Positions 1-16,372 of a DNA stretch of 16,372 bases are shown here, piece by piece (the first letter of the stretch is position 1; each line of letters begins with the position of its first letter). The position numbers were made by a program, and so were the translations under genes. Source of the stretch: Chitinivibrionales bacterium (lineage in GTDB: Bacteria > Fibrobacterota > Chitinivibrionia > Chitinivibrionales > WJKA01); NCBI GenBank assembly GCA_038247415.1, contig JBBRUX010000066.1, positions 1-16,372 of the forward strand. Direction: 5' to 3'. Under the pieces are notes generated by a model. That model searched no databases, was not told where the DNA came from, and worked only from the letters and a program-made list of their open reading frames with translations.

Positions 1-402
1 GAGGCATGGACATTTCCCAGAGGCACGTTAGAGATGCTGCATATTGAAGGAGCAATCATCGGACGCGCCACCTACGAGCCAGGATGGAAGTGGTCCACCT
101 CGGTGCAGCCTATTGCAAAAACTAAAAGCTGCGAAGTATCTCATTTTAAATACATTATTTCCGGCACGTTAAAATTTCTCATGGATGACGGTCTTGAATT
201 AACGTGCAAGACCGGAGACGTTTGCGTTATTCCAGGGGGCCATGATTCATGGGTAGTTGGAGACGAGCCAGTTGTTGTAGTGGATTTTCAGGGGATGAAG
301 GATTACACGTTAAATGAGCAACCAGTCCGTCATAATAATGCTTTTTATGATCGGATGGAAACCCTCCGCAACCTAAAAAAAAGGGAATCTTATGCACGTT
401 AA
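1..402 (+). CDS. Cupin-domain protein, 5'-truncated by the window edge
   Basis: The frame is open from base 1 (EAWTFPRGTLEMLHIEG...), so the true start is probably upstream. Cupin-like motifs: GRATYEPGWKWS, C-x3-H, GDVCVIPGGHDSWVVGDEP. The last ~30 aa do not look cupin-like and overlap the SOD start by 11 nt. Confidence 0.8.
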   Translation, partial: EAWTFPRGTLEMLHIEGAIIGRATYEPGWKWSTSVQPIAKTKSCEVSHFKYIISGTLKFLMDDGLELTCKTGDVCVIPGGHDSWVVGDEPVVVVDFQGMKDYTLNEQPVRHNNAFYDRMETLRNLKKRESYAR

Positions 403-1114
403 ACCACAGATTATTATCGCACTTTCTGGCATTACTCTTTTAAGCGCAATCTCATGGCTGCAATCGAGCGTGGCTGAAACGAAAAGAAACGGCTCAGCTG
501 CGTCTATATCCGCAGCAATGCCCGCATTTACGCTTCCCGCACTCCCCTATGCCAGAAATGCCCTGGAACCGTACCTTTCGGCGCGCACTATGGACTTTCA
601 TTACGGCAAGCATCATCAGGGCTATGTAGACAATCTGAACAAACTCACAGCCGGCACGGATGTGGCTGGAATTCTGCTGGAAGAGCTCCTCCGTAAAACC
701 ACTGGTAAGGATGACAAAGCGGAAATTTTCAACAACGCTGCACAAGTCTGGAACCATACGTTCTTCTGGAAGAGCATGAAACCCAATGGCGGCGGCGCGC
801 CGAGCGGCAAGCTATCCCAGCTTATCAACAAATCATTTGGGAGCCTCGATTCTTTCAAAGTGGCGTTTATCAATGCTGCCACGACCCAGTTCGGGAGCGG
901 TTGGGTTTGGCTCGTACTCGAGCAGAACACGTTGAAGATTGTCAAAACATCTAACGCCGATACACCAATCGCGCACGGCCAAACAGCACTTCTTACGTGC
1001 GATGTCTGGGAGCACGCCTACTATCTTGACTACCAGAATCGACGCAAGGATTTCGTTAAGACCTTCCTGGATCAACTGGTAAATTGGGAGTTTGCATCAT
1101 CACAACTGAAATAA
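392..1114 (+). CDS. sodB: Fe/Mn superoxide dismutase (Fe-type signature) with N-terminal signal peptide
   Basis: LPALPYA..ALEP, FHYGKHHQGYV, FNNAAQVWNHTFFW (AAQ is the Fe-type signature), QFGSGWVWL, DVWEHAYYLDYQNRR. SD-like AAGGGA precedes ATG 392. Hydrophobic 28-aa leader. Confidence 0.95.
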   Translation: MHVKPQIIIALSGITLLSAISWLQSSVAETKRNGSAASISAAMPAFTLPALPYARNALEPYLSARTMDFHYGKHHQGYVDNLNKLTAGTDVAGILLEELLRKTTGKDDKAEIFNNAAQVWNHTFFWKSMKPNGGGAPSGKLSQLINKSFGSLDSFKVAFINAATTQFGSGWVWLVLEQNTLKIVKTSNADTPIAHGQTALLTCDVWEHAYYLDYQNRRKDFVKTFLDQLVNWEFASSQLK

Positions 1115-1179
1115 TCCGACAGTTCGGTAATTGTTTCGAGATTTTTGCGTTGCCGGGGTCAAGCAGTGTGGTAAGAAAA

Positions 1180-1207
1180 ACCAGATTCCCATATATGAGA
1201 ATCTGGT
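1180..1207. promoter_or_regulatory. 28-bp near-perfect palindrome (operator/upstream activator site or hairpin)
   Basis: ACCAGATTC-C-CATATATG-A-GAATCTGGT, 13 of 14 positions symmetric. Lies about 130 bp upstream of the -24/-12 motif at 1336. Confidence 0.45.
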
Positions 1208-1335
1208 AATTGGAAATGAGAAATCAGGTGCGCGTAATACAATGCCAACATTCTCATCCGTTATACAATTGTGGGATCTCTCTAAAAAATATGCAAAAGA
1301 CACCCCGCATCATCATTTTTTCTCGTTTCTGCTCA

Positions 1336-1351
1336 TGGCACGATTTTTGAT
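1336..1351 (+). promoter_or_regulatory. Putative sigma54 (-24/-12) promoter with variant -12
   Basis: TGGCACGATTTTTGAT: perfect TGGCACG, GG-N10-GA instead of GG-N10-GC. Intergenic, upstream of the BON gene. Confidence 0.55.
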
Positions 1352-1476
1352 AATATAACAGGTGTAGTTATGAACCATTCGTAATCTAAAACAAAGGAGA
1401 GTTTATGTCATGATTACTGAATCTGAGAACAACTTTAGGTATAGAACAATCCGCAAACAAAAACAAAGGAGATTTT

Positions 1477-1953
1477 ATGCACGTTAAACAACAGGTTATT
1501 ATTGCAGTTTCAGCCATTACGCTTCTGAATGCGCTCTCGTGGGCGCAATCGGGGAAGTATGACAATTCAATGCGGGATAGTAGTAGTGTGTCATCAAGGT
1601 CCGACTCCACAAAAAATGGAACAAGGCTGGGCACTGCAGCAAAGAGCACTAGTCACAGATCCGCGAGGTCGGACTCCTTGCAAAATGACTCTGCCACTCA
1701 CGGTTATGGTGTCACGCCTTCTGACCAGGGCAATAAGAAGTCCGATGTGGATATCACCACAAGAATCAGAAAAGAAATCATGGCCACAAAGGGAATGTCA
1801 ATTAACGCTCAAAATGTTAAAATCGTCACTATTGACGGTGTGGTAACGCTCCGAGGAAAGGTTGATACCCAAAAGGAAAGAGCACTCGTTGTGGATATAG
1901 CCATGAAAACAGTCGAGGCTACTAAAGTTATAAATGAATTGCAGGTCAAGTAA
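1477..1953 (+). CDS. BON-domain (OsmY-like) exported protein
   Basis: Signal peptide (..ALSWA/QS), Ser-rich linker, then DQG..KSDVDITTRIRKEI...NVKIVTIDGVVTLRGKV...VINELQVK, typical of a BON domain. Strong SD AAAGGAG. Confidence 0.9.
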   Translation: MHVKQQVIIAVSAITLLNALSWAQSGKYDNSMRDSSSVSSRSDSTKNGTRLGTAAKSTSHRSARSDSLQNDSATHGYGVTPSDQGNKKSDVDITTRIRKEIMATKGMSINAQNVKIVTIDGVVTLRGKVDTQKERALVVDIAMKTVEATKVINELQVK

Positions 1954-1977
1954 GTGGCCGGAAAGGTTCCGGCTGCT
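1954..1977 (+). other. Intergenic GC-rich hairpin (no U-tract)
   Basis: GCCGGAA-AGG-TTCCGGC (1957-1973), extendable by G-U pairs, immediately after the BON stop. Confidence 0.5.
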
Positions 1978-2008
1978 CTAGTAATACGTCAATTGAAAGG
2001 ATTTTATC

Positions 2009-2566
2009 ATGTCAAGTAAATCAGTATTTTGCATTGCGAGCTCAGAGGACCAGGCGAATCGTATTGTGGATCGCCTTAAAATGGAAGATTTCCCAAATGA
2101 TACTATCTCTGTATTGTTTCCTGATAAAAAGGGGACTCGGGATTTTGCACACGAAAAGAAAACTAAGCTGCCCGAAGGTGGTGCCATTGGCGCCAGTACC
2201 GGCGGAGTAGTTGGCGGAGCATTGGGTTTGGCTGCAGGCATTGGTGCACTCGCCATTCCCGGGATTGGGCCATTCATTGCTGCCGGACCCATTATGGCAG
2301 CCCTCAGTGGCGCAGCAATCGGAGGTGCGGTTGGAGGGATAGCCGGGATGCTTATTGGTCTTGGTATTCCGGAATTAGAAGCAAAGCGGTACGAAGGGAA
2401 GATCAAAGATGGCAACATTCTGCTTTCAGTCCATGTAGAGGATTCCGATAAGGTCAATCGCGCTAAAGAAATATTCAAAGAAGAAAACGCGGAGGACATA
2501 GCTGAGGCAGGCGAAGCCTCAGTTCCCAAGAGGGACAAGCGTGAGACTGAGACAGTATCTGTCTAG
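2009..2566 (+). CDS. General stress membrane protein with glycine zipper (YflT/17M-like N-terminus)
   Basis: GGAIGASTGGVVGGALGLAAGIGALAIPGIGPFIAAGP...GLGIPELEAKRYEGKIKDGNILLSVH, a pattern typical of this stress-island family. SD AAAGGA. Confidence 0.8.
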   Translation: MSSKSVFCIASSEDQANRIVDRLKMEDFPNDTISVLFPDKKGTRDFAHEKKTKLPEGGAIGASTGGVVGGALGLAAGIGALAIPGIGPFIAAGPIMAALSGAAIGGAVGGIAGMLIGLGIPELEAKRYEGKIKDGNILLSVHVEDSDKVNRAKEIFKEENAEDIAEAGEASVPKRDKRETETVSV

Positions 2567-2580
2567 AAAGCTAGAAATCA

Positions 2581-2682
2581 GATGAATGTTGACAGCGCTC
2601 CTGTGCACATCTAACGGCGGTGTAATAATTCTATGTAAGGAATTCACCGCTGTTGAATTTGTGCAGGTCGTTGTTATTCATT
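2581..2682 (+). other. ~100-nt imperfect RNA stem-loop (UTR element or ncRNA candidate)
   Basis: Nested helices 2581-87/2676-82, 2591-97/2669-75, 2600-07/2660-67, 2612-22/2645-55, 2627-32/2639-44, including about 8 G-U pairs. Confidence 0.6.
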
Positions 2683-2749
2683 TTAAAACCATAATGGTTT
2701 ACAAAGTTAGCAGCAAGGTCAAAAACATTCACATAACAAGGGGTACACA

Positions 2750-2929
2750 ATGAAATCGAGCATGCATGACAAGGCAGAAGGCAAATTTCACAAAGTATCG
2801 GGTGGCATTAAACAAGTTGCCGGGAAACTCGGCAATAACCCGGAATTGGAAGCCAAAGGTACGGTAGAAAAGAATGCTGGAAAATTTCAGGAAAAAACTG
2901 GCCAAACCAAAAAGCTTTTCGGCAGATAG
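2750..2929 (+). CDS. csbD: CsbD-family general stress protein #1 (59 aa, not in ORF track)
   Basis: MKSSMHDKAEGKFHKVSGGIKQVAGKLGNNPELEAKGTVEKNAGKFQEKTGQTKKLFGR*. SD AAGGGG. A paralogue lies at 14557. Confidence 0.92.
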   Translation: MKSSMHDKAEGKFHKVSGGIKQVAGKLGNNPELEAKGTVEKNAGKFQEKTGQTKKLFGR

Positions 2930-2950
2930 TCGAATTTTAGTATGGCCTGC

Positions 2951-2985
2951 GTAGGAATCTCGTTAGGCACTAATGAGGTTCTTGC
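2951..2985 (+). other. 16-bp hairpin 3' of csbD #1
   Basis: GTAGGAATCTCGTTAG-GCA-CTAATGAGGTTCTTGC: 16 contiguous pairs including 4 G-U. No U-tract. Confidence 0.55.
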
Positions 2986-3225
2986 AAAACAGCCATTCGA
3001 TTCGATCGTATTTACATTAGGCAAGCTCAGTGCAAGAGCGATCGCTTCTGAAAACGATGCACTGAACGTGTTTAAAGGAGTGGGTGTTAAGTTTACTAAT
3101 TGCATCTAAGATAACCCGCACGAGGTAGCCTATACTACGATAGGATACGCTTAGGGAATAATTCCAATATTCTTTTTTGTAAAATCCACACTATTCTGAT
3201 AACAACAACCACACTAAGGATTATC

Positions 3226-4047
3226 ATGAGCACACTTATTACCAAAGACGGCACAGAAATTTACTATAAGGATTGGGGTGCTGGTCAACCCATTGTTTTC
3301 AGTCACGGCTGGCCTCTTACTGCGGACGCATGGGAATCGCAGATGGTGTTCCTTGCGGAGCACGGTTATCGCTGTATTGCTCACGACAGACGGGGTCATG
3401 GCCGATCTGGCCAGTCGTGGAATGGCAATGATATGAATACCTATGCTTCTGATCTTGCAGAACTGATTGTATCGCTTGACCTAAAGAATATTATTATGAT
3501 TGGTCATTCGACGGGTGGTGGTGAGGTTGCTCGTTATATCGGCCGCTACGGAACATCCCGTGTTGCCAAAACAGTCCTCATGGGCTCAGTTACGCCGCTT
3601 ATGCTCAAGACAAAGGATAATCCTCTTGGTTTGCCTATAAGCAAGTTTGATGAGATCCGTGCTGGCGTTACTGCAGACCGCTCCCAGTTCTACAAGGACC
3701 TCACGACTCCTTTTTTTGGTGCAAACCGCGAAGGTCACAAGGTCACGCAGGGAATGCGGGATGCGTTCTGGTTTCAGGGAATGCAGGGCAGCCTCAGGAG
3801 CGAACTCGAGTGCATCAAGGCTTTCTCGGAGACGGATTTCACCGGGGACCTAAAAAAGTTCGACGTGCCAACACTGATCATCCACGGAGATGACGATCAG
3901 ATAGTGCCGATTGAGGCTTCGGCATTGCTCTCGGTGAAACTCGTCGAGAACGCGACTCTGAAAATCTACAAGGGTGGCCCTCACGGTTTGGCCGACACCC
4001 ACAAGGATCAACTCAACGTCGACCTGTGGGGCTTTCTTATTGCCTGA
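3226..4047 (+). CDS. cpo: Non-heme chloroperoxidase/arylesterase-type alpha/beta hydrolase
   Basis: [27 protein letters not shown], nucleophile [21 protein letters not shown] (Ser-Asp-His triad). SD TAAGGA. Confidence 0.92.
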
Positions 4048-14493: not shown

Positions 14494-14509
14494 TGGCACG
14501 TGATTTGCA
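14494..14509 (+). promoter_or_regulatory. Sigma54 (-24/-12) promoter, consensus match
   Basis: TGGCACGTGATTTGCA = TGGCACG-N4-TTGCA, 47 bp before the csbD #2 ATG. Confidence 0.8.
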
Positions 14510-14556
14510 ATGTTTAATATAAGAGTCACTATTTTTCCATTAACAAGGAGTACAAG

Positions 14557-14736
14557 ATGAAATCCAGTATGCACGACAAGGTTGAGGGTAAGTTTCACAG
14601 AGTAAAGGGTAATATTAAAGAAGTTGCCGGGAATCTCGGAAATAACCCAGAATTGGAATCCAAAGGTAAGTTCGAAAAAACCGCCGGCAAAATTCAGGAA
14701 AAAGTTGGCCAAGCCAAGAAGCTTATCGGCAAGTAA
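14557..14736 (+). CDS. csbD: CsbD-family general stress protein #2 (59 aa, not in ORF track)
   Basis: MKSSMHDKVEGKFHRVKGNIKEVAGNLGNNPELESKGKFEKTAGKIQEKVGQAKKLIGK*. SD AAGGAG. 44/59 identical to copy #1. Confidence 0.92.
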   Translation: MKSSMHDKVEGKFHRVKGNIKEVAGNLGNNPELESKGKFEKTAGKIQEKVGQAKKLIGK

Positions 14737-16296: not shown

Positions 16297-16372
16297 TAGT
16301 ACTTCATGGGGCGTATGGCACTACGCGCCGACGATATAACACTATTACTTCATGGGGCGTATGGCACTACGC
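16297..16372. repeat. Tandem palindromic repeat (REP-like), 46-bp period, runs off the window edge
   Basis: TACTTCATGGGGCGTATGGCACTACGC occurs identically at 16300-16326 and 16346-16372. Internal inverted repeat GGGGCGTA/TACGCGCC. Confidence 0.75.

Follow-up and report, generated by a model that had tools for sequence, protein, structure and literature searches.

A predicted exported iron-type superoxide dismutase of a Chitinivibrionales bacterium whose initiation region and signal peptide were likely copied from a BON-domain gene

The window analysed here is the whole 16,372-nt stretch of contig JBBRUX010000066.1 (assembly GCA_038247415.1) from the genome of a Chitinivibrionales bacterium. 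Near its start lie the gene of an iron-type superoxide dismutase (SOD) and, after a spacer of 362 nt, that of a protein with a BON domain (BON1). We describe a segment that both genes carry at their 5' ends, which consists of a 5' untranslated region (UTR) with a Shine-Dalgarno-like (SD-like) ribosome-binding site (RBS), followed by the codons of an N-terminal leader. From the window start, the gene order is cupin, SOD, BON1, YflT-like protein, CsbD-like protein and further genes. The features on which the argument turns are the following:

360..466, + strand: cassette copy A, 5' UTR and leader codons 1-25 (MHVKPQIIIALSGITLLSAISWLQS), with 78% ungapped identity to 1445-1551; its parts are about 32 nt of A-rich 5' UTR, the SD-like AAGGGAA at 381-387 and the ATG at 392
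392..1114, + strand: Fe-type SOD precursor, 240 aa (Pfam Sod_Fe_N and Sod_Fe_C), with a predicted signal peptide at residues 1-28 (nt 392-475), a linker at 29-44 (nt 476-523) and the core at 45-240
518-520, + strand: the M43 codon, inside the SOD linker
1445..1551, + strand: cassette copy B, 5' UTR with AAAGGAG, ATG at 1477 and BON1 leader codons 1-25 (MHVKQQVIIAVSAITLLNALSWAQS)
1477..1953, + strand: BON1, 158 aa, an OsmY-like protein, predicted to be exported, with a single BON domain (Pfam BON at 89-158)

An earlier note on this DNA had reported that positions 365-466 and 1450-1551 align without gaps, with 80/102 nt identical (21/27 in the UTR part and 59/75 over 25 codons), peptides identical at 18/25 residues and six codons differing only synonymously. 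All of these figures hold (blastn 78.43%, E = 5.7e-18 against the whole 3,838,968-base genome), and a repeat search widens the pair to 360-466 and 1445-1551 (107 nt, 78%). The remaining leader codons comprise 12 that are identical and seven that change the amino acid (V/I, L/V, G/A, S/N, I/L, L/A and P/Q), with the hydrophobic core kept. As the note had also stated, the similarity stops abruptly after QS: identity drops to 10/36 nt downstream of the cassette and to the same value upstream of it, and local alignment of the 70 nt that precede the two copies scores 12, which 829 of 1000 shuffles equal or exceed. Searches of 1115-1371 and 308-359 by blastn (word size 9, E ≤ 1e-3) turned up neither a leftover BON 3' end nor traces of a native SOD 5' end. 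An Rfam scan of window positions 1-3300 gave no match at E ≤ 1. The two cassette copies are not more structured than shuffled sequences (z = +1.17 and +0.69; the long BON1 UTR gave z = -1.25) and thus show no sign of a structured regulatory RNA. The shared segment is confirmed as a DNA-level duplication of an RBS together with a leader.

Signal peptides are compositionally alike, and the genome is metagenome-assembled with a tangled region around the cupin gene, so that the resemblance might be due to chance, to convergence of the two signal peptides or to a chimeric assembly. Apart from the very low E value in the genome, the similarity extends to the UTR and to synonymous positions, which excludes chance and convergence of hydrophobic peptides. 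The two window copies differ at 22 positions, and the SOD copy differs from that of a second BON gene (BON2, described below) at more; 22 mismatches cannot be reconciled with repeat-induced misassembly. Moreover, Logan contigs bridge the junction at nt 466/467 in three sequencing runs, X1 (window 268-862), X2 (268-1400) and X3 (204-803), which represent three sediment samples of one study, X1 perhaps being the source sample. In these contigs the SOD open reading frame (ORF) shows only two differences, none of them in the coding part of the leader. A fourth run from another study, X4, covers 204-394 only, that is, the junction between the cupin gene and the cassette. At position 379 the X2, X3 and X4 contigs have C instead of A, which gives AAAACAAAGG as in the BON copies. 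Chance or chimerism is therefore already refuted, and we leave it a negligible probability.

The genome holds one further full copy of the cassette, on the minus strand of contig C20 (C20:1567-1687), which is 87% identical to the BON1 copy and 75% to the SOD copy by blastn. It heads BON2, a 159-aa, full-length paralog of BON1 (68% amino-acid identity; 78% nucleotide identity over 525 nt). When a profile built from the three leaders was run against 45,997 six-frame segments of the genome, only those three were recovered (E ≤ 6e-16; next best E = 1.7). The search for more leader copies that the earlier note had suggested thus added BON2 alone, and the leader is not a genome-wide repeat. A genome-wide screen for shared 5' ends by self-blastn (1,996 high-scoring segment pairs) returned 11 candidate pairs, ten of which proved on reading to be GTG-started frames over non-coding repeats or internal repeats; SOD/BON1 was the only ATG-started pair with a signal-like peptide.

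BON1 and BON2 share a layout of signal peptide, low-complexity Ser-rich spacer and one C-terminal BON domain, which in BON1 occupies residues 89-158 (47.6 bits against a Pfam cut-off of 27); the NCBIfam models for OsmY and DolP score far below their cut-offs (20.6 and 23.5 bits). Homology between the two spans the whole gene and continues upstream as far as a promoter-like element. Two features lie ahead of the BON1 cassette:

1336..1350, + strand: sigma-54-like -24/-12 element TGGCACG-N4-TTGA, upstream of BON1
1372..1413, + strand: UTR-only third copy of the 5' part of the cassette (1372-1407), followed by the mini-ORF ATG TCA TGA (1405-1413)

Window positions 1327-1407 align to C20:1733-1653 at 77%, and the TGGCACG-N4-TTGA element is also found before BON2 (C20:1724). 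The pattern TGGCACG-N4-TTG[CA] occurs at only seven genomic sites, of which three precede BON1, BON2 and a second CsbD gene (window 14494-14508), and rpoN is present. From the motif we infer that the elements are sigma-54 promoters, and their presence before these three genes may point to an RpoN-dependent stress regulon. The SOD-side copy starts downstream of the position of the sigma-54-like element, which means that only UTR and leader were copied. The UTR-only copy, just downstream of that element and 72 nt upstream of the BON1 copy, has a strong AAAGGAG and is the positional counterpart of the BON2 UTR; lying with its two-codon ORF within the BON1 5' leader, this duplicate may represent a scar of rearrangement or a mini-upstream ORF. 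Searches of 40 same-order genomes with BON1 as query found no BON1-like gene, except for one weak BON-domain match.

The SOD itself carries complete Sod_Fe_N (residues 46-130, profile 2-82 of 82, E = 1.3e-28) and Sod_Fe_C (137-237, profile 1-101 of 102, E = 1.6e-38) domains. The motifs FHYGKHH, WNHTFFW and DVWEHAYY are all present and align identically to the iron SOD 1my6; we take the metal ligands to be the His of FHYGKHH, the His of WNHTFFW and the Asp and His of DVWEHAYY. The NCBIfam SOD [Fe] model scores 248.7 bits and the [Mn] model 176.4, both under the equivalog cut-offs of 348 and 363. 1my6 is also the best solved relative, its residues 1-196 aligning to query 45-239 so that its residue 1 corresponds to A45; the two best solved relatives and most of the following ones are named iron SODs, and the first Mn-named chains come far lower. 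By rule-of-thumb inspection, the leader has K4, a hydrophobic core from I7 to L23, a candidate cleavage site S26-V27-A28/E29 and no Cys. Residues 1-31 are free of Arg, which bears out the earlier note's remark that the leader lacks a twin-arginine and supports its Sec-type (general secretory pathway) reading. Where the BON c-region reads SWAQS, the SOD copy reads SWLQS. The site that the note had named, SVA/E, is a plausible one: it fits the -3/-1 rule and is collinear with the ARA/E, AMA/E and ANA/Q sites of SOD orthologues. The linker that follows (ETKRNGSAASISAAMP) is retained in the window protein, and ...SSVA/ETKRNGSAASISAAMPAFTLPALPY is collinear with ...VVARA/ELPATGPAASGGSPAFTLPALPY and similar stretches in the closest relatives. 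GC content at third codon positions (GC3) is 0.577 in the core and 0.40 in the leader, against a mean of 0.396 (sd 0.056) for long ORFs of the genome; GC3 was considered as a sign of foreign origin and set aside as not decisive, several window genes and the cytoplasmic SOD of C20 (0.637) being equally high.

For comparison we used the best 119 non-self matches of thousands in a large protein database (62-79% identity), among which the named members are Verrucomicrobiota, Lentisphaerota, Planctomycetota and metagenome-assembled genomes of Syntrophorhabdaceae. In 95/119 the N-terminus is extended by 25 aa or more, with a hydrophobic core and without a twin-arginine (RR) motif; three were flagged as RR, 20 as short (two of them regex slips and several truncated) and one as other. 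The typical leader reads MN.YF.EGW.A.LVL.PLVGMAI.A.A and is followed by an Ala/Pro/Gly/Ser linker of 15-17 residues and then by AFTLPALPY. In a FastTree phylogeny of 170 SOD cores, the window protein falls into a set of eight rows with SH-like (Shimodaira-Hasegawa-like) support of 97, whose other members carry clade-type leaders (one truncated), and within a clade of 66 rows with support of 92 from which all 27 same-order rows and the three own paralogs are absent. SOD matches in the 40 same-order genomes reach at most 58% identity, and many SODs there have RRDF-type leaders for twin-arginine translocation (Tat). The genome itself encodes four SODs: those at C20:10375-10944 and C8:93670-94224 are leaderless, that at C59:6840-7451 has a twin-arginine leader (DRRDFLK), and that of the window (C66:392-1114) has the Sec-type BON leader; TatC is present. 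The clade thus appears to have been exported already, by non-Tat leaders. The earlier note's premise that exported metalloenzymes often use Tat is too narrow here, 95/119 clade members being non-RR.

These relatives decide how the fusion is to be read. The earlier note had proposed that a once cytoplasmic SOD core beginning near M43 received the BON leader as a graft, creating a newly exported enzyme. The SOD fold does start at A45, two residues after M43, and two leaderless SODs (C20 and C8) exist in the same genome. Those paralogs are just 52% identical and stand outside the 66-row clade, however, whereas the closest 119 homologues are mostly exported forms with the very linker that the window SOD retains. 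M43 is a residue of this linker, at a position occupied in most orthologues by A, T, S or G (GAPAF, GTPAF, VSAF). The graft is largely refuted and very unlikely. Because the linker and a cleavage-type site are kept and the clade was already leadered, the leader was replaced and export was not newly gained: the event would be the replacement of an existing signal peptide, not a move out of the cytoplasm. The note's Sec-exported Fe-SOD accordingly survives as a prediction, since the leader is non-RR and Sec-type by inspection; its view that export was created by the event does not.

Translation could instead begin at M43, the cassette being a functionless relic and the enzyme cytoplasmic, or both isoforms might be made. 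The in-frame ATG at 518 lies directly before the core, and loss of the hydrophobic core in about 14/119 homologues indicates that export can be lost in the clade. However, the frame is open from 392, and AAGGGAA lies 5 nt upstream of the ATG at 392, whereas no purine-rich SD precedes 518. All substitutions in the leader preserve its hydrophobic core, and the reading frame recurs in the X1-X3 contigs with the leader codons unchanged. We regard a relic as quite unlikely.

The roughly 14 homologues concerned are proteins of 215-216 aa (among them P0020, P0029, P0035, P0047, P0048, P0057, P0065, P0066, P0081, P0085 and P0090) that keep the first residues and the linker and lack a stretch of about 22 hydrophobic residues (MNPHVEKSATGPAAS... 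as compared with MNPHVIELWSAICILVPLVGMAVVAKAQQSAPAP...). Their pattern suggests repeated loss of export within the clade.

The direction of transfer, which the earlier note had assumed to be from BON to SOD, is supported by the distribution of the leader: both BON paralogs have it, an outside BON homologue has a similar one, and 0/119 SOD homologues have it. A blastp-short search with the 28-aa SOD N-terminus against 143 fetched proteins matched, besides the SOD itself, only BON1 (E = 1e-8) and BON2 (E = 1e-7), with E = 5.6 for the best of the rest. The nearest outside BON homologue, P0123 (48% identical over its full length), begins with a collinear, similar leader (MKNSKQLVLAASVSALLGATAWAEA); some BON homologues in the database are labelled 'hyperosmotically inducible periplasmic protein'. 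The opposite course, in which a native SOD leader was passed on to the BON genes, is suggested only by symmetry and by the SOD copy being the most diverged of the three, with 17 of 107 sites specific to it. Against it stand the absence of the leader from the SOD homologues, the leader of P0123, and homology between BON1 and BON2 that runs through the whole gene and up to the promoter-like element. This course is extremely unlikely, and a transfer from BON to SOD would best account for the distribution. Of the 107 aligned sites, all three copies agree at 69 and all differ at two; the SOD copy shares 14 sites with BON1 alone and five with BON2 alone, a weak preference. The BON1 lineage, after or close to the split of BON1 and BON2, was probably the source, and the transfer is not recent. 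Of the local duplication proposed earlier, the plausible part is that these sites favour the adjacent BON1; locality is not proven.

Two further features complete the start of the window:

1..402, + strand: small cupin gene, truncated at its 5' end by the contig end, with a weak Pfam Cupin_2 match
1180..1207, strand not assigned: hairpin of 12 bp, 66 nt past the SOD stop, from a terminator-like scan

The hairpin, whose T-run is on the minus strand only, might mark a terminator or the end of a transcript between SOD and BON1. The cupin frame continues into the cassette and stops at TAA 400-402, within SOD codons 3-4, giving an 11-nt overlap with the SOD start. In its homologues G000:C48, G027, G037 and G015, the gene begins some 15-20 codons before window position 1; past VDFQGM.DY, 4-10 residues follow in the first three, and past LDFTNM, three follow in G015. 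Compared with the 3-10 residues of these four, the window cupin extends 31 residues beyond the VDFQGM.DY-type motif and ends inside the cassette, consistent with the loss of the cupin's native stop in a rearrangement that abutted the cassette. At 189 SOD loci (28 from same-order genomes, one own paralog, 80 genome contigs and 80 metagenome contigs, among the matches listed), tblastn at E ≤ 1e-4 found no match to cupin, BON1, YflT-like or CsbD proteins in the flanks, and the neighbourhood is therefore specific to this lineage; the 78%-identical SOD P0002 was not among the metagenome matches listed.

A partial copy of the cupin gene lies downstream of BON2 (G000:C20:681-876), 97-100% identical to window 1-297 and carrying a 101-nt frameshifting internal deletion. 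A Logan contig from run X3 connects this deleted form straight to the SOD locus, and 120-nt unitigs in all four runs reach 32 nt past the window start and then end. Either two alleles or strains are present, or C20 and C66 are adjacent (BON2-cupin-SOD-BON1) with a tangled assembly at that point. Downstream of BON1, the YflT-like protein (window 2009-2566, 185 aa) has a weak Pfam match to its N-terminal domain and a Gly/Ala-rich hydrophobic middle. With its YflT-like, BON, CsbD and SOD genes, the start of the window looks like a general-stress cluster. Two CsbD-like genes (2734-2924 and 14541-14731) lie 11.8 kb apart with 81% DNA identity over 191 nt, and a 30-nt direct repeat (16297-16326 and 16343-16372; 97% identical, 46-nt spacing) runs into the contig end. 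No phage or plasmid genes were seen among the ORFs of the window.

Taken together, we consider it likely that the SOD at 392-1114 is an exported periplasmic Fe-type enzyme whose initiation region and signal peptide were copied from a BON/OsmY-like gene. The ancestral SOD would have carried a native Sec-type leader like those still seen in its closest relatives, until illegitimate recombination or duplication replaced the stretch from about 32 nt before the ATG through the n- and h-regions. The BON's own c-region sequence would have come along, while the SOD c-region with its cleavage site SVA/E, the linker and the core stayed. The same event could have set the cassette against the cupin 3' end, and the cupin frame would since have overlapped the SOD start; given this overlap, the cupin and SOD genes probably share a transcript and are translationally coupled. 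The enzyme would be translated from a borrowed, unstructured, A-rich initiation region, with the sigma-54-like promoter of the BON genes left out. Its leader (MHVK, a hydrophobic core of 17-19 residues and no RR) is predicted to send the unfolded precursor through Sec, possibly by way of the signal recognition particle; signal peptidase I would cut after A28, and iron would be inserted in the periplasm. We infer the Sec route, the cleavage after A28, the recombination mechanism and the cupin coupling from the arrangement described above.

The same origin could have produced a different protein, one whose N-terminus stays uncut as a signal anchor, fixing the SOD to the outer face of the inner membrane. 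The uncharged stretch P5-A28 spans 24 residues, the 17-residue core has a mean Kyte-Doolittle value of about 2.2 (hand calculation), and the AQS of the BON site has become LQS in the SOD copy. SVA/E nevertheless meets the -3/-1 rule collinearly with the orthologue sites, and BON proteins with the same core are presumably soluble in the periplasm. An anchor is unlikely.

Several observations weigh against a signal-peptide replacement from BON1 leading to a cleaved, exported SOD. For a Sec signal that is cleaved, the hydrophobic core is long, which leaves some probability for an uncleaved anchor, and both export and cleavage are deduced from the sequence. The AAGGGAA of the SOD copy is a weaker SD than the AAAGGAG of the BON copies. 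P0123 is a single outside homologue, and its leader is only moderately similar (9/25 residues identical by hand count). The preference of 14 sites over five has a one-sided binomial probability of about 0.03 (by hand), and most of the discriminating sites lie in the first codons and the UTR. The unswapped ancestral arrangement was not found in relatives, including the 189 SOD loci, and the runs that bridge the junction all come from one study.

A wider scenario, which we hold only tentatively and think rather doubtful, is that the SOD core was acquired horizontally from the clade, whose named members belong mostly to the Planctomycetes-Verrucomicrobia-Chlamydiae (PVC) group, and was then domesticated by the swap of leader and initiation region. 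If so, the exchange would be a natural counterpart of signal-peptide engineering, host compatibility of the 5' UTR and leader would act as a selectable barrier to the transfer of secreted enzymes, and the SOD might share translational or export control with BON proteins. Irrespective of this scenario, the locus preserves a rare readable DNA trace of signal-peptide exchange, with UTR, synonymous sites, sharp breakpoints, donor paralogs and unswapped orthologues, and it indicates that the exchanged unit can be RBS plus n- and h-region with the recipient's cleavage site kept. For annotation, the start should be placed at 392, not at M43, and the product named an exported Fe-type SOD (predicted). 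The locus also draws attention to a large, apparently uncharacterised Fe-SOD clade with non-Tat leaders. In the open-access literature we found no description of such a clade or of such a leader replacement in a free-living bacterium. If the clade is truly Sec-exported, the question arises of how an iron SOD would fold and gain its metal in the periplasm.

Set against known systems, the two partners of the exchange belong to familiar families. BON1 and BON2 resemble OsmY and other periplasmic BON stress proteins (PF04972) in having a signal peptide, and differ from Escherichia coli OsmY in having one BON domain where OsmY has two. The SOD shares with the clade of ~237-aa Fe-SODs a core identity of 62-79%, the linker length and the AFTLPALPY start, and is a member of it by the tree; it differs in that a BON-type leader and 5' UTR replace the MN.YF.EGW-type leader. 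Periplasmic SODs are not new in themselves, the original work reportedly having been done on Desulfovibrio vulgaris. Part of PMC6491731 deals with a periplasmic SOD in Desulfovibrio-type sulfate reducers, and part of PMC8193680 with SodA2.1 of Chroococcidiopsis, a MnSOD with a Tat signal. As in these exported Fe/Mn SODs, the SOD core of the window follows a cleavable-type N-terminal targeting peptide. Unlike in them, no twin-arginine occurs here or in 95/119 clade members, so that the Sec route would be used and the enzyme would fold and take up its metal outside the cytoplasm, and the leader of the window SOD comes from another gene family.

The closest parallel to the exchange itself comes from Borrelia burgdorferi, with its OspE/F-like leader peptide (Elp) lipoproteins and the 'upstream homology box' family. 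Through recombination, mature proteins that are unrelated have come to carry a common leader and common upstream DNA there (PMC12018966, on the Elp/OspE/F family). Here, too, a common leader with upstream DNA precedes unrelated mature parts, which belong to different Pfam families. The Borrelia leaders are lipoprotein leaders of large families on the multicopy prophage plasmids of a pathogen; in contrast, the present case is a single chromosomal event with three copies and no lipobox or Cys, affecting an enzyme of housekeeping type that was leadered before the event. That unrelated proteins can share leaders is thus known, and the SOD described here is a clear but modest bacterial case of a signal-peptide swap.

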